Assembly: GCA_021650915.1 (NCBI GenBank)
Contig: CP091279.1
Coordinates: 1,290,001-1,322,000 of the forward strand
Reading direction: 5' to 3'
Length of the DNA: 32,000 bases
Source of the DNA: Candidatus Brocadia sp.
Lineage (GTDB): Bacteria > Planctomycetota > Brocadiia > Brocadiales > Brocadiaceae
The notes below the pieces were generated by a model that saw nothing but the letters and a program-made list of their open reading frames with translations, was not told the origin of the DNA and ran no database searches. Made by a program: the position numbers and the translations under genes. Below are positions 10,398-32,000 of the stretch, piece after piece; position 1 is the stretch's first letter, and every line of letters begins with the position of its first letter.

Positions 10398-10869
10398 ATG
10401 CTTCGTCTACCTGTTTTGAAATGAATTTGTGCTTCTATTTTATCCGTATTTTCAAGGCATTCAAGGAAAATTAATGAAAGATAGAAAATCCCGTCTGCTG
10501 GCTTGGTAGCAATACCGGTCAGATCAAAACGGCACCATACCAGTTACTCTTATTTGACTTTTACTTTCAATTTTGCTTTTGCACTGCCTGCTTTAAATTT
10601 CACCCTTCCTTTTCTCATTTTCCGGTCACTTGATTGGGTCAGTTCCGTAATGGTAAACTCGGTCTGGCCATGAGCGTCGGTAATGCTTCTTCTTGGATGA
10701 ACCGTGATGCATCTTCTGCCCCTTTTAACCTGCGCCCTTACTTTCTTACCCTCCACTGGGCAACCACCCTCACCGGTTACCGTCACCGTTACTTTAGCGC
10801 TCTTCCCTAGTTTAAGCCTTATTTTTTCCGGAGACACCGTCATCACCTTATCTCTGCACACGGCAATAT

Positions 10870-12150
10870 CCGTACCGGTAGTAAAGTTCCAGGTATAATC
10901 AGCAGCCATGGCGTTGCCGGCAAGGTCTTTTACCCCCCTGGTCATCGTTACCGTGTAGGCCGTGGAATGGGCTAGGTTACCCGACGGCGCGAACGTCGCT
11001 GTCGTGCCACTATAAGATACCGATCCGCTGACATTACTACTACCATCATACACGCTAAAGGTGGCGATGCTCACAGTAGACACATCCATCGCCTCAAAAA
11101 ACGTAACCGTAATAGCCCCGTTGATTGCCGCACCAGACGCTCCGTTGACCGGACTCGTGGAACTTACCGCGGGTGATGTGATATCCGTATCCGTGCCGGC
11201 AGTAAAGTCCCAGGTGTAATCAGCAGCCATAGCATTGCCGGCAAGGTCTCTTACTCCCGTGGTAATCGTTGCCGTATAGGTGGCAGAAGGTATCAGGTCG
11301 CTCAATGGTGTAAATGTGGCTACCGTACCATGATACATAACAGATCCGCCAATGGTACTACTGCCATCATTCACGGTAAATGTAGCGGTGCTTATCGTAG
11401 AGACATCTATCGTCTCACTGAACACAGCAGCAATAGCTCCATTAATAGCAACACCAGATGCGTCATCGACCGGACTCGTGTCACTTACGGCGGGCGGTGT
11501 GATATCCGTATCCGTACCGGTGGTAAAGCTCCAGGTGTAATCATCGGTCATGGCATTGCCGGCAAGGTCTTTTACCCCCGTGGTAATCGTTGCCGTGTAG
11601 ACGATAGAAGGAGTCAGGTTACTGGTCGGGCTAAACGTTACCGTCATACCACGGCAGGATACCGATCCGCTGATATTACCGCTACCGTCATTTACCGTAA
11701 AAGTCGCTGCGGTAACGGTAACGGCATCCATTGCCTCACTGAATGTAGCAGTAATCGCCCTGTTGACAGCCACTCCAGATGCGCCATGAACTGGGCTTGT
11801 GGCGCTTACCGTTGGCGGTGAGGTATCCGTGTCTGTGCCAGTGGTAAATTCCCAGGTGTAATCAACGGCCATGGCATTGCCGGCCAGGTCTTCCACCCCC
11901 GTGGTAATCGTTGCCGTGTAGACGGTGGAAGGAGTCAGGTTAGCCGATGGTGTAAACGTGGCCGTCGTACCACGATACGATACCGATCCGCCGATATTAC
12001 CGCTGCCATCATTTATGGTAAAGGTCTCCGTAGTAACGGTAGAGGTATCCATTGCTTCACTGAACGACGCACGTATGGCCGTGTTTATCGTCACCCCTGT
12101 AGCTTCATGGGAAGGACTGGTGGAATCAACCCCGGGGGTTACCGTCAATA
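10870..12150 (-). repeat. four tandem 321-bp (107-aa) coding repeats
   Basis: The motif CC(G/A)G(T/C)(A/G)GTAAA..CCAGGT.TAATCA recurs at 10875, 11196, 11517 and 11838, a period of exactly 321 bp. Confidence 0.85.
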
Positions 12151-12460
12151 CTCCGGAATTTGTTGGACTCAGACTGCCTGTGGTTACCTTGATTTCAGTA
12201 GTTCCTGAGAAATGCCCGGTAAAAACAGCGCTTTTCCTGTCCCCACCCGGAACCAAATCTCCTGCAACCACCCCACCCGTGGCGTTTTCAAGAGACCATA
12301 CATCGGCAGCCACATTAGCGACAAAGTTATCATAATCATCACGTTCAATCGCATACACCGTAATCGAACGACCCGAAGTGATACTTTGCAAAGGCACTAC
12401 CGTCCCACTTCCATCCGCCACCGTCTCAACCCTCACCTTCGTCCCGGTTCCCAGGGTAAT

Positions 12461-13390
12461 CGTAAACGCATCGCTCTCGGCTGAGGTTAGCCCTGCACTC
12501 GATGCCGTCAGATTCTTTGCTCCTTCCAGATTGATGCTCAAATCAGAAAAGGTCGCAAGGCCACTGCCATCCGTTGACTGCGGTGTCGTGCCACTGAGCA
12601 CGCCGGTGCCGGTCGTCAGGGCCATCGCCACAGACACACCGCCCCTGGACACGTTATTGCCAAGGATATCCTTAAGTTGCACGGTAATAGCCGGACTGAT
12701 TACATCATTAGCCACCGTGTCCGTAGGCTGCTGAACAAAGATAATGCTGACTGCTGCGCCGGCCGATATCGTAAACGCATCACTCACGGCCAAGGTCAGT
12801 CCTGCGCTTGATGCCGTCAGGTTTTTTGAGCCTGTCAGGTTGATGCTAAGATCGTTAAAGGTTGCAAGACCACTGCCGTCCGTTGTCTGCGGTGTCGTGC
12901 CACTGAACACGCCGGTGCCGGTTGTCAGGGCCATCGCCACTGACACACCGCCTGTGGATACGTTATTACCAAGGGCATCCTTGAGCTGCACAGTAATGGC
13001 CGGACTGATCGCAGCGCCTGCCACGGCATCAGCAGGCTGCTGGACAAAGGCAACGCTGGCTGCAACACCAGCCGATATTGTAAACGCATCACTCACAGCC
13101 GAGGTCAGTCCTGCGCTTGATGCCGTCAGATTTTTTGAGCCTGTCAGGTTGACGCTAAGATCGTTAAAGGTTGCAAGACCACCGCCATCCGTTGCCTGCG
13201 GCGTCGTGCCGCTGAGCACGCCGGTGCCGGTCGTCATGGCCATCGCCACTGACACACCACCCGCGGACACGTTATTGCCAAGGGCATCCTTGAGTTGCAC
13301 AGTAATGGCCGGACTGATCGCAGCGCCTGCCACGGCATCAGCAGGCTGCTGGACAAAGGCAACGCTGGCTACCGCACCTGGATTGATAAG
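12461..13390 (-). repeat. three tandem 309-bp (103-aa) coding repeats
   Basis: CGTAAACGCATC... recurs at 12461, 12770 and 13079, a period of 309 bp with high identity. Confidence 0.85.
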
Positions 13391-14169
13391 GAGTCCAGCA
13401 TTAGAACCGGTCTTGGAGTTCCCATCTGTGACGGTAATGCTGATAGTCTCTGCAATATTGTCTTTCGTGCTTATGGTGAACGTACCGGCAGTTAATGTCT
13501 TGGTATTGTCACCAAACGATGCATCGCCGTTACTATCAAATTGCACACTCCCTGAACTGCCCATGGTTACGACCGTGCTGTTATCATAAACTACCGTTTC
13601 GTTTAAAAGATCCTCTGCCGTCACCTTCGTCAGAAACGTAATGCCTGCAGTCTGTGGAGAGGTGGCATTTACTACATAGTGATCAATTTCCTGCTCACCA
13701 ATGGCAAAGTCTCCTAACGAAGAGATGCCTGTTGCTCCGGTACTTGTCGCTGTTTTCGTTCCTGCAGTCGTTGGGAGCCAGGCAGCCCCGTTGAATTGCC
13801 GTACGACAAAGCTTCCTGGCGCCGCCCCCCCATCCGTGACACTTGCAACGAAGTTGAACGTGGCATCGTACGTGGAGAATCCTAACCCTCCGCCGTCCGT
13901 CAACGTCCAGAACCGATTAACGCTTCTTGCAGAGTCGATTCCGGATGTCCCAACGCCAGGATGTTCCGTTGCCGTTGCCGCCGCGGTTACGTTACCTGGA
14001 GTGGTTACATTAAGAGAATTTATACTCACAGGGGTATAATCAGTTGCATCGCCTATGTCAAACGTGAAAGATTGAGCGCCGGCTGCAAATACCTTCTGCA
14101 AATTGCCGGCAATATGGCCACTTGTCCGCGACACACTCCCCGACGAGTCGATAACCATCGCAACCGAAT

Positions 14170-14755
14170 CCGTTGTAATGTTGCCGCCAGCAAGAGTCAG
14201 CGTACCTGTGACGGTGGCAGTCCCAGCAAGGGTAACACCGTTAGAATTACTGATCTTGATATTACCATAGGTAAGGGCACTTACGATTTGAGCCGATGTT
14301 CCGGCGTAGTCAACCGTTAAATCAGTCAAAGTATTTGTTGTGAACTTATACTGATTCGAGTAATCAGCCGTTGCAGACGTTCTCGTTACCTGAACGGTTC
14401 CCAAGCCGGTGATGGCACCTTGTGTGGCAGCATTATTGACCACCACTGTCGCCGCAGGACTTAAGAGGGCAGATGCATTGACGGTCAAAGTGCCGCTGAC
14501 ATCGAAGTCTGCGCTCGCCGTAACGGCGGCAGCCGTATTGGATATTTTCAAACTTCCGTAGCTCAAGGCGCTTATCTCCTGGGCTGCTGTTCCGGCATAG
14601 TCGACCGTCAGATTGTTCAAAGTATTTGTTGTGAATTTATACTGGCTTGAGTAATCAGCCGTTGCGGACATTCTTGTTACCTGAACGGTTCCCAAGCCAG
14701 TGATGGTACCTTGTGCGGCAGCATTATTGACCACCACCGCTGCTGCAGGACTTAA
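14170..14755 (-). repeat. 291-bp (97-aa) coding repeats; a third unit continues at 18775-19065 beyond IS-A
   Basis: The repeat junction GGACTTAAGAG is at 14457-14467. The homologous junction at 14748-14755 is the one interrupted by IS-A. Confidence 0.7.
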
Positions 14756-14905
14756 CCCGACTTTCGCAATTCGCGCCCAAAAAAGTTTATTTTTGGGCAA
14801 GAGTCGCCAGGAAACCCGTGATATTCAAGGGGTGAATTTTCAAAACGGCTTGTAGTGCCGACCTACCCTCTTGACGCATGCAGGAGGAAGTGCGAAAATG
14901 CTCGC

Positions 14906-15476
14906 ATGTTTCTCCGGGAAAAGACATGAACGAAAGATGGAAAAACCCACCGTTATTGGAGTGTGGTAGAGAACCACCGGGTCAGCGGAAGAAGGGTGGT
15001 GCAGCGGCAGGTTCTCTATTTGGGAGAACTCAATGACAATCAACGGGCTGGGTGGATTCGGACGATAGAGGCGGTGTCGGGTAAAGAACCGAAACCAAGA
15101 CAACTGGCATTGTTTCCGGATGACCGGGAAGCCATGCCGATACCGGATGGTGAGACCGTTCAGGTGAGATTGGACAAAATAGAGCTGCGCCATCCACGGG
15201 AGTGGGGAGCAAGCTGGTTGGGATTGCATGTATGGGATATGCTGGAACTGGACGCATTTTGGAGAAAGCGTCTGCCGTCAAGCCGGAAGGGAACAAGCTG
15301 GCTGAATATCCTGAAGGCGCTTGTCTGTTACCGGTTGACCGATCCGGGAAGCGAATTTCGTTTTCACCGTGAGTGGTACGTGCGGAGCGCAATAGGTGAT
15401 CTGCTGGGAGAGGATTATTCCCTGGCGCAGAAGGACAAGGCGTATCGTTGTTTGGATTTGTTGCTTGAGCATCGGC
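14906..15476 (+). pseudogene. IS1634-family transposase, exon 1, with an in-frame TGA at codon 8
   Basis: ATG at 14906 gives MFLREKT*TKDGKTHRYWSVVENHRVSGRRVVQRQVLYLGEL. As I recall the family, this is its typical N-terminus, with Arg at position 8, which would imply CGA->TGA at 14927-14929. The frame is interrupted by the intron after 15476. Confidence 0.7.
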
Positions 15477-17478
15477 GTGCCTTGAAGTATGGGATACCTA
15501 AGTGGTTGAAAATATCACCTCTGCGAGCCTAGATCCTCGTAGAGAAGTTTGTACCTATGCGTATACAAAGGAGCAATCCGTGTGCGTAGAAGGATAGCGT
15601 ATTCCCGTGAGGGGTATGACGGAGTTACGAGGTACAGACGACCTTTTGGGGTGTATGAGTATGGCGTGTTAGTTCGTGCCAACTGCCCTTTCTCAGTGAA
15701 GCACTGACAATGTCCTTGTTGGAGATGTCAAAAAAAAAAAGACCTGGTGAAAACATCTCTGGATAATGCGTTTGAACATACATCACGAAGGGAAAAGGGG
15801 TAATTCATATGACCGGGGGAGGACTTACGTCTTGGGAAGAAATTCCCTAACAGCGAGGTATAAGGGAAATCCGAAATCCAAGCTGTATGAGATGGTGACG
15901 GACGACTGGCTCTCACAGGTCTGTCTTTGAAGTCGTCAGCAGTGCTCATAATAGTTTCTGGTGTGTACCAGGAATGAAGGGGCATAACCGTAGTGGAGTT
16001 GATGAAACGTGGTAGATTGAATACGTTCCATGAGAAAAGAGACTCTTTGCATGGGCAAGTAGTAGCAAGAGCCTCTCTTGTTTTGCCTCTGTCAGGAGGA
16101 ATCTCGACTCAGGAAACACGATTGACAAGTCTATTATCCGGAATCAATCAAAAGGAACATATCGGGAGATGCTTAAGTATCATTCTTTAAGAGACAAGGT
16201 ATTCAGTCTGAGAAACCTTTATGCGGCTTTTGGGCACGTAAAGAAGAATAAAGGCAAGGCTGGTCTCGACAGGGTAAGTATTAAGCAGTTTGAAAGTGAC
16301 CTTGAGAATAATCTACAAGCTATTCACAAGGAACTGAAAACCGCCATATACAACCCTGCGCCCGTCTTAAGGGTCTACATTCCCAAAGGCAGGCATGGCA
16401 AGAGACCTCTTGGCATTCCCATTGTCAAGGACAGGGTAGTACAGCAGGCGTTCAGACAAATCATAGAGCCAATATTCGAGAAAGAATTCTCGGATAACAG
16501 CTTTGGATTTCGTCCAAACAGATGCTGTCATGATGCTATCAAACGGATTGAACAGTATAAGCAGCAAGGGTATCGGAACATTTTGGACGCCGATATAAAG
16601 GCGTTCTATGATACCATACCTCACAAGCTTATCATGAACTCCTTGCGTGAGAAAATTGCTGACGGATGGGTGTTGAACAGTATCGAGAACATGCTCAAGG
16701 CAGGGGTCATGGAGGACGGCATCGTGCATGAGACAAATCAAGGCACTCCGCAAGGAGGCGTCATATCTCCCTTGCTTGCAAACCTTATCGGTGACATCAT
16801 CGACAAGGAGCTTGAAAAGGCAGAATATAAATTTGTCCGCTATGCCGATGACTTCGTTGTCATGACTAAAACGAAAGAAGAACTCCCTGCCGCCCTTCAG
16901 TACGTCAAGGAAATCATCGAAGGGAAACTTGAAATGAAGCTGAACGAGGATAAAACCAGGCTCACCAACTTCAAACGAGGCTTCCGGTTTCTCGGATATA
17001 ATTTCATGGGCAAGAACAAGGGTGTAAGCATGAAATCCCTGGACAAACTCAAGGACGCCGTCAGGGACATCACCAAACGCACACAAGGCGTCAACCTGCA
17101 AGCCGTCATTGATACATTAAATCCTGTCATAAGGGGACATGTCAACTATTTTCGGCTGGGCAATGTACAAACGGTATATCGCTCGTTAGACTGCTGGGTA
17201 CGCATGAGACTGAGAAGTTTCAAGTTTTCGAGAAAATGGAAAACTGACAACAAACGTTTCCCGGTACACCGATTCTTTAAGATGGGGTTACTCTCATTTG
17301 AAAGAGAATTTCTTAAGGCACGTGCAAAGGCATGATAGGTTACTTTTCTCTGCTCCAGAGCAACACTATGGGGTCGCTAACTACGGGAAAGCCGTATGGT
17401 TTAAAAGGATACTTTGTCACGTTGTCCAAAGTATCTGGCGACGATTGGGGGTTGGAGGCGATTCGCCTCCTTCCTACC
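15477..17478 (+). mobile_element. group II intron, copy 1 (2002 nt), with an intact intron-encoded protein
   Basis: Boundaries come from comparison with copy 2 and from frame restoration of the host gene. They carry a 1 nt ambiguity because a C flanks both ends. The 5' end reads GTGCC. The 3' region has a 10-bp stem at 17407-17436 and a hairpin at 17454-17470. The ORF lies in the expected domain IV position. Confidence 0.8.
16169..17335 (+). CDS. group II intron reverse transcriptase/maturase, no endonuclease domain
   Basis: 388 aa with RT motifs RPLGIPIVKDRVVQ, GTPQGGVISPLLAN and YADDFVV, plus a maturase X-domain RGHVNYFRLG. No HNH or Cys motifs follow domain X. Confidence 0.9.
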   Translation: MLKYHSLRDKVFSLRNLYAAFGHVKKNKGKAGLDRVSIKQFESDLENNLQAIHKELKTAIYNPAPVLRVYIPKGRHGKRPLGIPIVKDRVVQQAFRQIIEPIFEKEFSDNSFGFRPNRCCHDAIKRIEQYKQQGYRNILDADIKAFYDTIPHKLIMNSLREKIADGWVLNSIENMLKAGVMEDGIVHETNQGTPQGGVISPLLANLIGDIIDKELEKAEYKFVRYADDFVVMTKTKEELPAALQYVKEIIEGKLEMKLNEDKTRLTNFKRGFRFLGYNFMGKNKGVSMKSLDKLKDAVRDITKRTQGVNLQAVIDTLNPVIRGHVNYFRLGNVQTVYRSLDCWVRMRLRSFKFSRKWKTDNKRFPVHRFFKMGLLSFEREFLKARAKA

Positions 17479-18695
17479 AGCTGGACGAGTTGTTTGCCTA
17501 TTTAAAGGAGAAGTGGGGAAAACTCTTTGGGGCGAAGTACGATGTGCTGCTGTATGATTTGACGAGTACGTATTTTGAAAGTGACCCACCTCCGACTGGA
17601 TCGGGGAGTAAGAAACGGTTTGGATATAGCCGGGACAAACGTTCGGATTGCGTGCAGGTGGTAGTGGCATTGGTGTTAACGCCGGAAGGATTTCCCGTGG
17701 CCTACGAAGTGTATCCGGGCAATACCAGAGACACCGCAACGCTGGAGGAATTTCTGGATCGGATTGAAAAGCAGTATGGGAAATTCCGGCGCACCTGGCT
17801 TATGGATCGCGGTATTCCAACGGAGGAGATGTTGGAAAAGATGCGTGAGCGCGGGATTGATTATTTGGTTGGGACTCCGAAGGGACATTTGACGCGAGTA
17901 GAAAAACCGTTGCTCGAACAAACCTGGATGCAGGCGAGGGAGAGTGTCCGCGTGAAAGTTCTTCGGCAGGAATCGGAGTTTTACGTTTACGTGGAAAGCC
18001 ATGACCGGGTGTCTAAGGAGCGTGCCATGCGTAGGCGCAGACTCAGACGTTTGTGGATGGGCCTGCGCGAACTTCGCAATCGAAAAGCCCTCACGCGCGA
18101 TGACCTGCTCATGCATATTGGCGCGTTAAAGAAAGAAGCCGGACGAGACTACAGACTGGTCACGATCTCCATTCCCAAACCGCAGGAACCGGTCAATGAG
18201 AATACGTTCCGGTTCAGTTTGGATCGGGAACGCCTGAGGCAGGCGTATCGGCGCGAGGGGCGTTATTTGCTTCGTTCCAACATGCAGGCCGCCGCGCCAG
18301 AAACCGTCTGGGAAAATTATTTGCTGTTGACGCGGATAGAACAGGCATTTAAGGACTTGAAGGGGTCTCTTTCCGTCCGCCCCCTATGGCATCAATTGGA
18401 ACGGAGAATTGAAGCCCATATCTTTGTTTCCTTTTTGGCTTTTTGTCTCCACACGACACTGCGCAATCTTGCGCGGGGGAGGGCCGGAGGGCTGACGTCT
18501 GAAGCGATTTTGGAAAAACTGTCGGGCATTCAAATGATAGACGTTCATTTACCGACCACGGATGGCCGTCATATTGTCATGAGCCGTTATACCCAGCCGG
18601 AGAAGGACGTTTTACTCCTTTTGGCGCAGTTGGGATTAACGCTTCCTGAACAACCGCCGCCCAAGGTTTACGTATCCGGGCAGGTCGGCCTGTAG
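17479..18695 (+). pseudogene. IS1634-family transposase, exon 2
   Basis: The splice join CAT CGG C|AG CTG GAC gives LLEHRQLDELFAYLKEKWGKLFGAKYDVLLYDLTSTYFE..., continuing through the DDE region (WLMDRG, YLVGTPK) to a TAG at 18693-18695. Confidence 0.75.
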
Positions 18696-18709: not shown

Positions 18710-18770
18710 CATGACCCCTTGATTTTCCTGGCTTAGCGGGTTGTATACCCCTCGAATTGCGAAAGTCGGG

Positions 18771-19675
18771 TTAAGAGAGCAGATGCATTCACGGCCAGAG
18801 TGCCACCGACATCGAAGTCCGCGCTTGCCGTAACGGCGGCAGTCGTATTGGATATTTTCAGATTTCCGTAGCCCAAGGCGCTTATCTCCTGGGCTGCTGT
18901 TCCGGCATAGTCAACCGTCAGATTCGTGAGCGTCTTGTTGTCAATAGTATATTGCAAGCTGAAATCATCCACCGCTGCCGTACGCGTTACTTGCACGGAG
19001 CCGTTCCCGCTCAAAGTGCCGGTTCCGCTGACTACTACGGCCGCGGCAGGAGTTAAGACGGCATTTACATCTACCGTGAGAGTTCCAACAGCGCTAAAGT
19101 TTGTATTTGCCGAAACTGCTGCACTTGCATTCGAAATGGTTACATTATTGAATGCGGTAGCTCCTGTTCCGCCAATGGCCTGTGCTGATGAGCCATGAAA
19201 AATTATGGCGCCGGAACCAGCAGTAAAGGTGTCATCGTTGTCCCAGTTGCCCGTCAGACCCAGCGTACTCGAGTCGCCATTGAGCGTGCCTGCCGTAATC
19301 GTGACGTCACCATTAATGGTGTGCAACAAAGCAGCGCCAAGATCCAATGTCCCGCCACTTCCATTCATCGTTAGCGATGCAGCCGTTATATCTCCGGTAA
19401 GCGTGGCGGTGCTTGCTGTCCGGTTAATGAGAAACGCCCCTGTTGTTACGAAACCGTCAATGCTTGGCGCCGGACTTGTTCCCCCGATCGTTATGCTGGA
19501 ACTGTTCGCGGTAAAAATGCCTCCATTCGTGAAGCTTCCGTTGAGAGTCAAAGCAAAGTTGTCTCCCGATGTGTCGAGCGTTCCAGCCGTTATCGTGAAA
19601 TCGCCGTTTACTATGGTGTCTGCGCTCAATGTTGCTGTCTGCCCTGATTTATTAATGGTGAGATGATGATAGGTA
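18771..19675 (-). pseudogene. giant repetitive surface protein, middle fragment (between IS-A and IS-B)
   Basis: The frame reads YHHLTINKSGQTATLSADTIVNGDFTITAGTL...AVNASALL. Both ends join in frame to the flanking fragments once the IS elements and target duplications are removed. Confidence 0.8.
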
Positions 19676-28106: not shown

Positions 28107-28235
28107 TCATAAAATATATGTTTGGATATCAGAGTGGATTGACGGCATATTTCTGTTTGTTTTTGTTCGATAAGCGCTATTTCATGCAATAATATGATGG
28201 CAATTATAGAATAAATCATATGAGGGAGAGACAAT

Positions 28236-28460
28236 ATGAAAACAAAAGATCTTATAGCAGAAGCAATTTCATTACCTGTTAAAGAAATGGCGATGGTTAT
28301 TGATTCTTTATTAAAAAGTTTAAACTCACCGGAAGCGGAAATAGATAAAAAATGGGCATCAGTTGCTAAACGACGACTTGAAGAACTCCATTCCGGTAAA
28401 GTGAAAGCAGTGCCAGGTGAAGAAGTATTTAAAAGAATATTGAATAGGTTCTCAAAATGA
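28236..28460 (+). CDS. antitoxin, addiction-module component (TIGR02574-like)
   Basis: 74 aa. LIAEAISLPVKEMAMVIDSLLKSL...W...A.RRLEEL.SGKVK..PGEEVF is the typical pattern of this family. Its stop overlaps the next ATG (ATGA). Confidence 0.7.
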   Translation: MKTKDLIAEAISLPVKEMAMVIDSLLKSLNSPEAEIDKKWASVAKRRLEELHSGKVKAVPGEEVFKRILNRFSK

Positions 28461-28789
28461 ACTATTCATTTCATCCCGAAGCGGAAATAGAATTCATTGA
28501 AGCAGGTGAGTATTATGAAGAAAAGGGATCAGGATTGGGATACGACTTCGCTGTTGAGGTATATTCAGCTATTGAAAGGACGATAACTTTCCCAAAAGCT
28601 TGACCGGTTATAGAGGAAGATATCCGGCGGTCGTTAATTCGAAGATTTCCATATGGAATCTTATATTCAGAAGAGAAAGACGGGGTATACATTGTAGCAG
28701 TCATGCATTTACATAGAGAACCAAAATACTGGAAACACAGAGTCTACAAATGTGTTCGCAATTGCACGCCGTCTGCGGTCGCCGCATAA
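28457..28789 (+). pseudogene. ParE/RelE-type toxin with an in-frame TGA
   Basis: MNYSFHPEAEIEFIEAGEYYE...ITFPKA*PVIEEDIRRSLIRRFPYGILYSEEKDGVYIVAVMHLHREPKYW. The stop at 28601-28603 sits where this family usually has Trp (FP..WP). Confidence 0.7.
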
Positions 28790-28836
28790 TTACCTCATTA
28801 GAATTAAACGATACACCTTAATTCTAATGCACTATA

Positions 28837-29113
28837 ATGAGACCGGACTTTGAGTGGGATAAAGAGACGGCGAAAGCAAATCTCAAAAAGCACAGAGTCT
28901 GTTTTGAGGAGGCTACCACAGTTTTCCTCGATCCATTTTCAATGACGATTCCTGACCCTGATCACTCAGTGGAAGAACAACGGTTTATTGACATTGGTAG
29001 TTCTGATAAAGGCCGTGTGCTGGTAGTGGTTTATACTGAACGCGGTTCAAGCATGCGTATTATCAGCTGCCGTAAGGCAACGCCATCGGAGCGGACACTT
29101 TATGAAGAAGGGC
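28837..29113 (+). CDS. brnT: BrnT-like (DUF497) toxin, exon 1; exon 2 is 31110-31123
   Basis: FEWDKETAKANLKKHRVCFEEATTVFLDPFSMTIPDPDHSVEEQRFIDIGSSDKGRVLVVVYTERGSSMRIISCRKATPSERTLYEE matches the DUF497 pattern. The frame then runs into the intron. Confidence 0.8.
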
Positions 29114-31109
29114 GTGCCTTGAAGTATGGGATACCTAAGTGGTTGAAAATATCACCTCTGCGAGCCTAAATCCTCGTAGAGAAGTTTGTACCTATGCGTA
29201 TACAAAGGAACAATCCGTATGCGTAGAAGGATAGCGTATTCCCGTGAGGGGTATGACGGAGTTACGAGGTACAGACGACCTTTTGGGGTGTATGAGTATG
29301 GCGTGTTAGTTCGTGCCAACTGCCCTTTCTCAGTGAAGCACTGACAATGTCCTTGTTGGAGATGTCAAAAGAGACCTGGTGAAAACATCTCTGGATAATG
29401 CGTTTGAACATACATCACGAAGGGAAAAGGGGTAATTCATATGACCGGGGGAGGACTTACGTCTTGGGAAGAAATTCCCTAACAGCGAGGTATAAGGGAA
29501 ATCTGAAATCCAAGCTGTATGAGATGGTGACGGACGACTGGCTCTCACAGGTCTGTCTTTGAAGTCGTCAGCATTGCTCATAATAGTTTCTGGTGTGTAC
29601 CAGGAATGAAGGGGCATAACCGTAGTGGAGTTGATGAAACGTGGTAGATTGAATACGTTCCATGAGAAAAGAGACTCTTTGCATGGGCAAGTAGTAGCAA
29701 GAGCCTCTCTTGTTTTGCCTCTGTCAGGAGGAATCTCGACTCAGGAAACACGATTGACAAGTCTATTATCCGGAATCAATCAAAAGGAACATATCGGGAG
29801 ATGCTTAAGCATCATTCTTTAAGAGACAAGGTATTCAGTCTGAGAAACCTTTATGCGGCTTTTGGGCACGTAAAGAAGAATAAAGGCAAGGCTGGTCTCG
29901 ACAGGGTAAGTATTAAGCAGTTTGAAAGTGACCTTGAGAATAATCTACAAGCTGTTCACAAGGAACTGAAAACCGCCATATACAACCCTGCGCCCGTCCT
30001 AAGGGTCTACATTCCCAAAGGCAGGCATGACAAGAGACCTCTTGGCATTCCCATTGTCAAGGACAGGTAGTACAGCAAGCGGTCAGACAAATCATAGAGC
30101 CAATATTCGAGAAAGAATTCTCGGATAACAGCTTTGGATTTCGTCCAAACAGATGCTGTCATGATGCTATCAAACGGATTGAACAGTATAAGCAGCAAGG
30201 GTATCGGAACATTTTGGACGCCGATATAAAGGCGTTCTATGACACCATACCTCACAAGCTTATCATGAACTCCTTGCGTGAGAAAATCGCTGACGGATGG
30301 GTGTTGAACAGTATCGAGAACATGCTCAAGGCAGGGGTCATGGAGAACGGCATCGTGCACGAGACAAATCAAGGCACTCCGCAAGGAGGCGTCATATCTC
30401 CCTTGCTTGCAAACCTTATCGGTGACATCATCGACAAGGAGCTTGAAAAGGCAGGATATAAATTTGTCCGCTATGCCGATGACTTCGTTGTCATGACTAA
30501 AACAAAAGAAGAACTCCCTACCGCCCTTCAGTACGTCAAAGAAATCATCGAAGGGAAACTTGAAATGAAGCTGAGCGAGGATAAAACCAGGCTCACCAAC
30601 TTCAAACGAGGCTTCCGGTTTCTCGGATATAATTTCATGGGCAAGAACAAGGGTGTAAGCATGAAATCCCTGGACAAACTCAAGGACGCCGTCAGAGACA
30701 TCACCAAACGCACACAAGGCGTCAACCTGCAAGCCGTCATTGATACATTAAATCCTGTCATAAGGGGACATGTCAACTATTTTCGGCTGGGCAATGTACA
30801 AACGGTATATCGCTCGTTAGACTGCTGGGTACGCATGAGACTGAGAAGTTTCAAGTTTTCGAGAAAATGGAAAACTGACAACAAACGTTTCCCGGTACAC
30901 CGATTCTTTAAGATGGGGTTACTCTCATTTGAAAGAGAATTTCTTAAGGCACGTGCGAAGGCACGATAGTTTACTTTTCTCTGCTCCAGAGCAACACTAT
31001 GGGGTCGCTAACTACGGGAAAGCCGTATGGTTTAAAAGGATGCTTTGGTACGTTGTTCAAAGTATCTGGCGACGATTGGGGGTTGGAGGCGATTCGCCTC
31101 CTTCCTACC
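29114..31109 (+). mobile_element. group II intron, copy 2 (1996 nt), with a defective intron-encoded protein
   Basis: Collinear with 15477-17478 and differing by scattered SNPs. It has aaaagag where copy 1 has an A11 tract (15730-15740) and carries a 1-nt deletion in the RT ORF. Flanked by GGC | AGCT, as in copy 1. Confidence 0.85.
29801..30969 (+). pseudogene. group II intron RT/maturase, frameshifted
   Basis: GGG (copy 1, GACAGGGTAG) is GG here (GACAGGTAG, about 30066), producing a TAG at 30068-30070. The rest of the protein continues in another frame (ORF 30214-30969). Confidence 0.85.
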
Positions 31110-31124
31110 AGCTAGGTGAGTAAA

Positions 31125-31403
31125 ATGGCACGGACGACGGATAGCGATATGCGCGCCGAGTATGATTTTAGAGGTGGAGTGCGTGGCAAGCATTACAGAG
31201 CCATGCAAGCTGGATATACAATTACTATTCATGAAGCGGATGGCACAACTGTCGTTAAGGATGTGATACCAAAAGAGGGCGCAGTCATCCTGGAACCAGA
31301 TGTTAGAGCATATTTTCCAGATTCAGAATCAGTAAATAGGACTTTGCGTTGTTTAATTCCGCTGCTGCCCAAAAAGCTTAAAACAAAAGCTAAAAAGGCC
31401 TAA
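31125..31403 (+). CDS. putative antitoxin partner of BrnT
   Basis: MRAEYDFRGGVRGKHY...VILEPDVRAYFPDSESVNRTLRCLI resembles antitoxin-type small proteins found beside DUF497 toxins. The ATG lies 1 nt after the restored brnT stop (TAA at 31121-31123). Confidence 0.55.
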   Translation: MARTTDSDMRAEYDFRGGVRGKHYRAMQAGYTITIHEADGTTVVKDVIPKEGAVILEPDVRAYFPDSESVNRTLRCLIPLLPKKLKTKAKKA

Positions 31404-31444
31404 CAAGTCGCTCCGCTTAACCCACCCTTATACAGCAAACCAGC

Positions 31445-31579
31445 ATGAAGACAGGCAACGTTTACCAAGAATTTAAATCCTTAACGCAAAACCAGTGCAA
31501 ACATATTTTCGGCACACCTTTTTCTGAATTTGAAATTCCGCACCGGAAATGCAGGAAGGCGCAGAACAATGACCGTTGA
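31445..31579 (+). CDS. possible small ORF (44 aa)
   Basis: ATG-initiated ORF whose stop overlaps the start of the next ORF. No similarity recognised. Confidence 0.15.
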   Translation: MKTGNVYQEFKSLTQNQCKHIFGTPFSEFEIPHRKCRKAQNNDR

Positions 31580-32000
31580 TGTTAAGAAATTAGAACGCGC
31601 GTTACCCGTCCATGCCTATGGAAAAGACAAGGCCAAGAGTTTTCGGCAGCTTTTGAATGAAATTGCAACTGGCGAGACGCAAATCATCTGGCAGGAGAAC
31701 CGCCCCATCCGTTTGCTCAGCATTGTTGTTGTCAAAGTGCACTGCCGGGATAAGACCTTAGTTGAAGACCGGCAGGTGTTTCCTGACGGACGGGTTCGCT
31801 ATCGGGGAATTGAGGGACTTTCCGAAAAGCTTCATCCGCAGGAAGAACACAGCAAAGGAGTCTATCGTGCCCTGCAGGAAGAACTGGGTTTTTCGGCGGA
31901 TGAACTGCAAGGTATATCCATTCAGTTTTTGGGGCGGGAATGGGAGAAAAAGGAAAGCCTTTCATATCCGGGTCTTGAGTCGCACTATGACACTTATACA
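31569..32000 (+). CDS. partial ORF, possibly a Nudix-like hydrolase (3' end lies outside the window)
   Basis: Open from the ATG at 31569 to the window end. GLSEKLHPQEEHSKGVYRALQEELGF approximates the Nudix box Gx5Ex7REUxEExGU, with the first Glu of the REU element replaced by Ala. Confidence 0.3.
   Translation, partial: MTVDVKKLERALPVHAYGKDKAKSFRQLLNEIATGETQIIWQENRPIRLLSIVVVKVHCRDKTLVEDRQVFPDGRVRYRGIEGLSEKLHPQEEHSKGVYRALQEELGFSADELQGISIQFLGREWEKKESLSYPGLESHYDTYT

Follow-up and report, generated by a model that had tools for sequence, protein, structure and literature searches.

A group II intron with an atypical domain V in the brnT toxin operon of a Candidatus Brocadia lineage

The window analysed here is a stretch of 32,000 nucleotides (nt) of DNA from Candidatus Brocadia sp. 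(GenBank assembly GCA_021650915.1, contig CP091279.1, positions 1,290,001 to 1,322,000), and it carries two copies of a group II intron. Each is about 2 kb long and has a gene for a reverse transcriptase (RT)/maturase, and the two are about 98% identical (Table 1). Copy 1 interrupts the transposase gene of an IS1634 insertion sequence (IS). Copy 2, the main subject of this report, lies in sense orientation in an operon of the toxin-antitoxin (TA) kind, with an open reading frame (ORF) encoding a BrnT domain upstream and a 92-aa ORF downstream. A reading made previously from the letters of the DNA (the sequence-only reading) had described a group II-type intron on the sense strand of a brnT operon, carrying a defective maturase gene, and this description was confirmed by the RT profile and by reading of the ORFs.

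The ends of copy 2 were fixed by comparison with intron-free brnT alleles in relatives, a check that the sequence-only reading had itself proposed. Nine such alleles were found, the first (L004) by a look-up of the downstream protein and the remaining eight as L082-L089. All read ...GAAGAAGG|AGGTGAGTAAAATGGC, with the brnT frame running on as ...GG|AGGTGAGTAA; the ligated target sequence of the Brocadia locus is GAAGAAGG|AGGTGAGTAAAATG. Since these nine alleles define the empty site, the inserted block is 29112-31113, and the boundaries given previously (29114-31109) were off by 2 nt (5' end) and 4 nt (3' end). The insertion point lies between bases 2 and 3 of the codon for Gly93, 7 nt 5' of the TAA of the toxin gene. 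In place of the C-terminus LYEEGQLGE that had been predicted for the spliced product, the empty-site alleles give LYEEGGE and a toxin of 94 aa. The predicted spacing was correct, excision putting the TAA 1 nt before the ATG at 31125. The possibility that an intron-free allele arose by microhomology deletion was considered and rejected, both AGG copies being kept and the junction of copy 2 showing no microhomology.

The same analysis was applied to copy 1. Excision with the junction at 15474/17483 leaves an open transposase ORF of 574 aa, which aligns without gaps to an uninterrupted homologue on L059 (82-86% identity). This IS1634 homologue reads ...LLKHRDELFEY and matches excision of 15475-17482 (HRDELF); the frame adopted previously would yield HRQLDELF, with an extra QL that is absent from the homologue. 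At both sites the empty site equals the ligated exons, without target-site duplication, based on the nine alleles for copy 2 and on the IS1634 homologue for copy 1.

The ends of the element were then compared across about 50 independent insertion sites, obtained from relatives with 72-86% RT identity and from 60 metagenomic loci fetched by a conserved motif. The elements start with G(T/C)GTGCCTTGAAG and end with CTACCAGCT. At the RNA level these ends correspond to G(U/C)GUG...CUACCAGCU, the extended form of the 5' end being G(U/C)GUGCCUUGAAG, and the flanks diverge beyond them. With respect to the group II 5' boundary GUGYG, the relatives have GUGUG, and the two window copies together with L013 have GCGUG, which agrees at four of the five positions (U2 to C). 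The 3' end departs from the boundary AY, being ...CCAGCU at nearly all of the sites, with one variant ...CCAGAU. The CUAC that had been read as the end of the intron belongs to domain VI, where it forms the branch-site bulge.

The RT of copy 1 matched TIGR04416 (group_II_RT_mat) with 401.6 bits against a cut-off of 300. It also matched Pfam RVT_1 and GIIM, corresponding to RT and maturase (X) domains; the intron-encoded protein has no endonuclease domain. The RT gene of copy 2 is frameshifted, as had been noticed from the sequence: the run at 30066-30067 is short of one G, which leaves a fragment of 89 aa, and this G is present in all eight relatives compared. The frameshift is not a read error, because an 89-aa fragment ending at the same point is encoded in an independent assembly of Brocadia as well (P0121, UJS20096.1). 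With 98% identity, the nearest RT is that of a Brocadia metagenome-assembled genome (MAG) of 4.05 Mb, which contains several full-length paralogues (388-389 aa) and several fragments. Intact paralogous RT genes are thus present in the genome, in agreement with the earlier suggestion that maturase is possibly supplied by another copy. Exact look-ups of the window RT and of its closest relatives P0001 and P0125 returned nothing on record. Copy 1, whose RT is intact, has 5 additional nt in an A-run of domain I (15730-15734); none of the eight relatives has them, and the difference reflects a gain of sequence in copy 1 rather than a loss from copy 2.

The structure of the 3' region was investigated using RNAalifold and pair counts on an alignment of 24 distinct family members. 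In the consensus fold 95% of the cells were paired, compared with 36-45% in slid controls, and 12 pairs showed compensatory changes. Domain VI, the helix of which is backed by compensatory changes, contains a conserved bulged A31107 (the candidate branch point), followed by six nt (CCAGCU) up to the 3' splice site at 31113, in keeping with the distance of 7-8 nt expected for group II introns. The basal helix of domain V, GUCGCUA/UGGCGAC, is invariant and carries the CGC triad. It is topped by hairpin A at 31013-31027 (UACGG-GAAAG-CCGUA; UACGR-GAAAN-YCGUA in the family) and then a UG bulge, and an extra hairpin B of 8 bp, at 31039-31066, is inserted in the 3' strand and covaries strongly. The result is a domain V-like core, with a CGC helix, a UG bulge and a loop containing GAAA, that is divided by an additional covarying hairpin (~45 nt). 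This split domain V was seen in both window copies (31004-31073 in copy 2, 17373-17442 in copy 1) and in L012-L014, L022-L081 and L096.

No group II family of Rfam was matched by the window element at gathering thresholds or at E<=1-10, and RF00029 was not found at E<=10; the sole group II signal in Rfam was a sub-threshold match to D1D4-1 (20 bits) at 15914-15982, in the position of J2/3 and domain III. A descriptor of the canonical domain V of ~34 nt (AGC/CGC triad, 2-nt bulge, GNRA loop) found none in either copy and recovered both of its controls, a typed-in domain V sequence of the ai5-gamma type and the domain V of the relative L095. The latter element, with 48% RT identity, has a canonical domain V that scores 33 bits with RF00029, just under threshold, and satisfies the descriptor, and it also gives Rfam hits for D1-D4. 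The upper half of its domain V, UACGGGAGAACCGUAUG, nearly equals hairpin A of the window, and its intron has CCUACUCUAU as its 3' end, the distance from the bulged A being that of the window family. In Halarsenatibacter silvermanii, from which L095 comes, this canonical intron lies just 5' of two features, a T-box leader scoring 110 bits and a gene for an aminoacyl-tRNA synthetase (L095 2590-2807).

Two further structures were considered. A canonical domain V read from AAGCCGUAUGG...GGUACGUUGUUC was rejected, since it occurs only in copy 2, through derived mutations, and is absent from the relatives. The other was a candidate 7-nt pseudoknot, GAGCAAC/GUUGUC, both strands of which are nearly invariant. 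Copy 2 carries derived substitutions at 29210, 29504 and 31057, in columns that are conserved in 7-8 of 8 relatives, and also a conservative A-to-G change at 31042. Full-text literature searches with phrases for an inserted or atypical domain V gave no description, the specialised intron databases lying outside the search. Judged by its protein, its ends, its domain VI and its insertion behaviour, the element is a group II intron with a non-canonical domain V and a CU 3' end.

The product of the upstream ORF matched PF04365 (BrnT_toxin) with 95.7 bits over residues 7-85, covering the full profile, and the PDB entry 7vd7_A ("toxin") with E=9e-11. The latter alignment stops at residue 92, which is the end of the chain, and because it runs through this residue the 5' exon encodes the whole BrnT fold. 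The downstream ORF had been called an antitoxin. Its context bears this out as far as a conserved partner of BrnT is concerned, but a match to BrnA, a ribbon-helix-helix family, could not be demonstrated: searches of Pfam (E<=10), NCBIfam and PDB by sequence and by profile returned no match, BrnA included. The partner gene lies directly 3' of BrnT in every homologous locus examined (L004, L082-L089, L090-L092 and L094), these loci coming from Brocadia, one groundwater contig and one Planctomycetota MAG. The two genes are separated by a 1-nt gap or overlap by 20 nt, the overlap being found in L091, L092 and L094. In L082-L089 the gene order is ThiC, an antitoxin-like gene, a 48-aa ORF, BrnT, the partner, a 173-aa ORF and a methyltransferase.

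Homologues of the partner form 1673 clusters with 78-99% identity (P0135-P0254 among them), all of them unnamed and none with a Pfam domain. They are spread over Planctomycetota, Desulfobacteria, Syntrophales, Actinomycetota and other groups, always as hypothetical proteins. An AlphaFold2 model was of low confidence (predicted local distance difference test score, pLDDT, 54), with a predicted C-terminal strand-helix-helix pattern. Most homologues are 99 aa long, start with MKKxxxK seven codons upstream of the start of the 92-aa form and overlap brnT by 20 nt. Their N-terminal seven residues are variable, and many have I, L or T at the position of the internal Met of the window protein. The intron-free Brocadia partner is called as a 99-aa protein, MKKEVSKMAR... 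(P0135, P0137), and the window keeps the upstream ATG at 29102, translating MKK, in the 5' exon. Based on this conserved context, the partner is probably the cognate of BrnT. Both ORFs are intact outside the insertion site and nearly identical to those of the intron-free alleles.

The sequence-only reading had placed the intron between the two genes. The toxin ORF does lie on its 5' side and the 92-aa ORF on its 3' side, but the insertion falls within the overlap of about 20 nt between brnT and the 99-aa partner ORF. It splits a strong ribosome-binding site (RBS) of the partner, which reads AAGGAGGUGA in the intron-free allele and is reduced to AGGUGA in the window, so that the start context of the partner in unspliced RNA is CUAGGUGA. 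Unspliced RNA encodes toxin residues 1-92 followed by a tail of 18 aa, and it keeps an in-frame partner AUG (31125) with the weakened RBS AGGUGA. Neither gene strictly needs splicing, in view of these two products, and the claim that the operon is splicing-dependent, though mechanistically possible, is not supported. That the unspliced toxin and the truncated transposase at copy 1 end in a common tail was read correctly, both carrying RALKYGIPKWLKISPLRA. A scan for promoters and terminators over 28200-31600 gave nothing above shuffled expectation in or around the intron, its 3' end included.

Across related lineages the intron is not conserved at the brnT site; it is polymorphic among near-identical strains, the intron-free alleles matching the window with 99.4-99.8% identity in their flanks. 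Many independent assemblies and samples yielded the allele that bears the intron, with contigs that break at the intron edge, and this recovery indicates that the allele is viable. In strain L004 (1-106) the brnT site is empty and the same intron is located 490 bp upstream, at GAGGAAG|ATATCC. That insertion lies in what is left of an adjacent TA pair, and one small TA cluster has thus been hit twice independently. In all strains examined the pair, at 28236-28603, consists of an Unstab_antitox gene (28236-28460) and a partner truncated to 48 aa.

The intron family is multi-copy, its members being found in the IS1634 gene, in other intron copies and in many metagenomes. A scan of genome contigs with the 24-mer of the 3' end gave a single match, the 5'-truncated fragment L011. 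Nested copies were observed in which introns are inserted in the 5' part of other copies (L012 111-148; L039 239-440), the insertion points following ...GAAGUAUGG| and ...GGGGUGUG|. Internally deleted derivatives that keep both ends were also identified, with lengths of about 260 nt (L025/L028/L050), 1653 nt (L036/L057/L076), 1008 nt (L039), 869 nt (L053) and 717 nt (L079). Some of these occur at more than one site, which suggests that ORF-less copies are mobilised in trans. That the lineage is mobile is clear from its insertions, which are polymorphic, nested and present in multiple copies. The 5' flanks at about 50 distinct insertion sites are purine-rich (GRG...). A column-by-column scan of 22 intron/flank pairs for exon-binding and intron-binding sites (EBS/IBS) revealed only U-rich runs, with promiscuous pairing to the purine-rich flanks.

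What was directly observed is the insertion with its precise ends and its polymorphism, and also that copy 2 is defective (the RT frameshift and three substitutions at conserved positions). The likely explanation is a recent, accidental retrotransposition reflecting target preference, into an operon that tolerates the intron and is not under its control. A multi-copy intron without an endonuclease domain would recently have retrotransposed, in sense orientation, into the brnT operon of one Candidatus Brocadia lineage. The landing zone is the ~20 nt in which the toxin ORF ends, the partner ORF begins and the partner RBS lies. Such a location is probably a by-product of target preference, because the purine-rich, GRG-containing site resembles the other 5' flanks of the family. 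Removal of copy 2, if any, would require maturase from the intact paralogous copies, and precise splicing would restore the 94-aa toxin, the 99-aa partner ORF and the strong RBS. The unspliced RNA would give a full-fold BrnT with the 18-aa tail and a 92-aa partner from the internal AUG, lacking only the variable seven-residue N-terminus.

Several points weigh against this explanation. The target preference is suggested by the similarity of the flanks, without EBS-IBS pairings having been identified. The ribozyme mutations of copy 2 could abolish splicing, and the tail could deprive the toxin of its activity or raise its toxicity above the native level. In addition, the weakened RBS and the lost native start of the partner could make the toxin:antitoxin ratio truly sensitive to splicing.

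An unlikely alternative is that the module has been inactivated, in that the intron is never spliced and the genes are a decaying TA remnant, with a tailed toxin that is non-toxic or an operon that is silent. No disabling mutations have accumulated in either gene and both ORFs remain intact outside the insertion, which speaks against decay; the dead RT of copy 2, together with its three changes at conserved ribozyme positions, and the already truncated adjacent TA pair would fit it. It would also agree with the typical residence of bacterial group II introns in dispensable or mobile DNA.

It is rather improbable that the toxin:antitoxin balance is set by splicing and hence by maturase acting in trans, with functional coupling ("addiction") of the retroelement family and the TA module. 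The intron does remove the native start and most of the RBS of the partner while toxin translation is untouched, the maturase of copy 2 is frameshifted and intact paralogues exist, there is no promoter-like site near the intron's 3' end in the region scanned, and the intron-bearing allele persists in many samples; a precedent for coordination of host genes by a maturase in trans is given by Trichodesmium (see below). However, the insertion is strain-polymorphic and recent, and this polymorphism argues against an evolved coupling between intron and TA module. Moreover, the same intron is found at many unrelated sites, including ISs and other introns, the in-frame partner AUG with AGGUGA remains, and copy 2 is mutated at conserved ribozyme positions. 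That the TA module is a hostage of the intron family, so that the balance would shift in favour of the toxin if the intact copies were lost or no longer expressed, is very doubtful; such a reading would build on the native start and the strong RBS of the partner being present only in spliced RNA, and on copy 2 being unable to make its own maturase.

That the element is some other RT-encoding element or an assembly artefact is extremely improbable: the missing Rfam match at threshold, the lack of a canonical domain V and the CU end in place of AY would allow it, but it is contradicted by the RT passing the group II equivalog model, the GUGUG or GCGUG 5' end, the covariation-supported domain VI with its bulged A six nt before the end, the precise insertions without target duplication at about 50 sites, the canonical domain V and D1-D4 Rfam hits of the relative with 48% RT identity, and the same junctions in many independent assemblies.

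Among known introns, the window family resembles the endonuclease-less introns of the RmInt1 type, which likewise encode an RT and maturase without an endonuclease domain, are multi-copy, occur in an IS transposase gene and in further dispensable DNA, insert precisely without target duplication and have truncated and internally deleted derivatives. Unlike these, the window family has a split domain V, an ...AGCU end instead of AY, a GCGUG start in the window copies and no Rfam group II match. Group II introns with shifted splice sites are known, namely the B.c.I4 type with its 3' extension and C.te.I1, and here, too, the first CUAC-type "AY" does not mark the true 3' splice site. In contrast to these introns, the window intron has no domain VII of 50-70 nt and ends at the usual six nt after the bulged A.

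The coupling of a retroelement with a TA module had been put forward as undescribed, but group II introns inside TA gene cassettes have already been reported (PMC7923331). In the cluster of attC sites lacking an integron-integrase (CALIN) of Halorhodospira halochloris, truncated group IIB introns occur in TA gene cassettes, with modules of the BrnT/A family in the same array (PMC7923331). Common to both cases is the association of group II introns with type II TA operons; the H. halochloris introns are truncated and lie in attC cassettes, whereas that of the window is full-length, in sense orientation and located in the ORF overlap of a chromosomal operon. Introns at the stop or start codons of housekeeping genes are known from Avi.groEL and EcKTE56.groEL, and in Trichodesmium a trans-acting maturase system, dnaN/RIR, coordinates host genes (PMC12584367). 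The groEL and dnaN/RIR introns share with copy 2 a place at the very 3' end of a coding sequence and the possible reliance of a defective copy on maturase encoded by another copy, but these insertions are conserved and site-specific across lineages, whereas the window insertion is polymorphic and one of many scattered sites. The operon itself resembles BrnT/BrnA in having the toxin gene first (BrnT/DUF497, of ribonuclease fold), followed by a small coupled or overlapping partner gene; unlike BrnA, the partner in the window matches neither the Pfam BrnA family nor any other Pfam, NCBIfam or PDB entry.

Table 1. Features of the brnT locus and of the two intron copies in the window
Feature	Position	Strand	Remarks
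brnT 5' exon	28837..29111	+	codons 1-92 and first two bases of Gly93; ends ...GAAGAAGG
Upstream start (ATG AAG AAG G) of 99-aa partner ORF	29102..29111	+	overlaps end of brnT; intron separates the rest
Group II intron copy 2, 2002 nt	29112..31113	+	5' GCGUGCCUUGAAG ... CUACCAGCU 3'; from empty alleles
Read-through of toxin ORF into intron	29112..29169	+	tail RALKYGIPKWLKISPLRA; stop 29167-29169
RT/maturase pseudogene of copy 2	29801..30969	+	89-aa fragment 29801-30070, remainder in another frame to 30969
Atypical domain V of copy 2	31004..31073	+	RNAalifold and pair counts
Domain VI of copy 2, bulged A31107	31077..31110	+	bulged column conserved in consensus fold (helix 5)
brnT 3' exon, A GGT GAG TAA	31114..31123	+	also holds remnant of partner RBS; read directly
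Partner (putative antitoxin) ORF, 92-aa form from internal ATG	31125..31403	+	conserved context downstream of BrnT
Intron copy 1, 2008 nt	15475..17482	+	inside IS1634 transposase gene
Intact RT/maturase gene of copy 1, 388 aa	16169-17335	+	TIGR04416, Pfam RVT_1 and GIIM
IS1634 transposase exons flanking copy 1	14963-15474 and 17483-18695	+	joined, an open 574-aa ORF
Site without insertion in the window, holding the intron in strain L004 (...GAGGAAG|ATATCC)	28619..28620	+	allele comparison

Other features were identified elsewhere in the window. A c-di-GMP-I-GGC riboswitch aptamer was found at 2637-2740 on the minus strand (RF03167; 62.2 bits, gathering score 59). A very large ORF of 1416 aa, at 10550-14800 (-) and 18733-19629 (-), contains tandem repeats of 321, 309 and 291 nt and is apparently broken by the IS1634 element in which intron copy 1 resides. 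At 14461-14614 and 18771-18924 there are direct repeats of 154 nt with 92% identity.

The event at brnT is of a known kind, in which a proliferating retroelement recently came to occupy dispensable DNA, the insertion being polymorphic. This is usual for bacterial group II introns, which typically occupy ISs and other dispensable DNA. The TA aspect carries little weight unless splicing is shown to gate the output of the antitoxin. The BrnT partner, on its part, represents a large, highly conserved family without annotation. More unusual than the TA insertion is the intron lineage with a split domain V and a CU terminus. Lacking a canonical domain V, terminating in CU and matching no Rfam group II family, this lineage will be missed by surveys based on domain V, and it constitutes a natural test of the tolerance of a catalytic domain to insertion.

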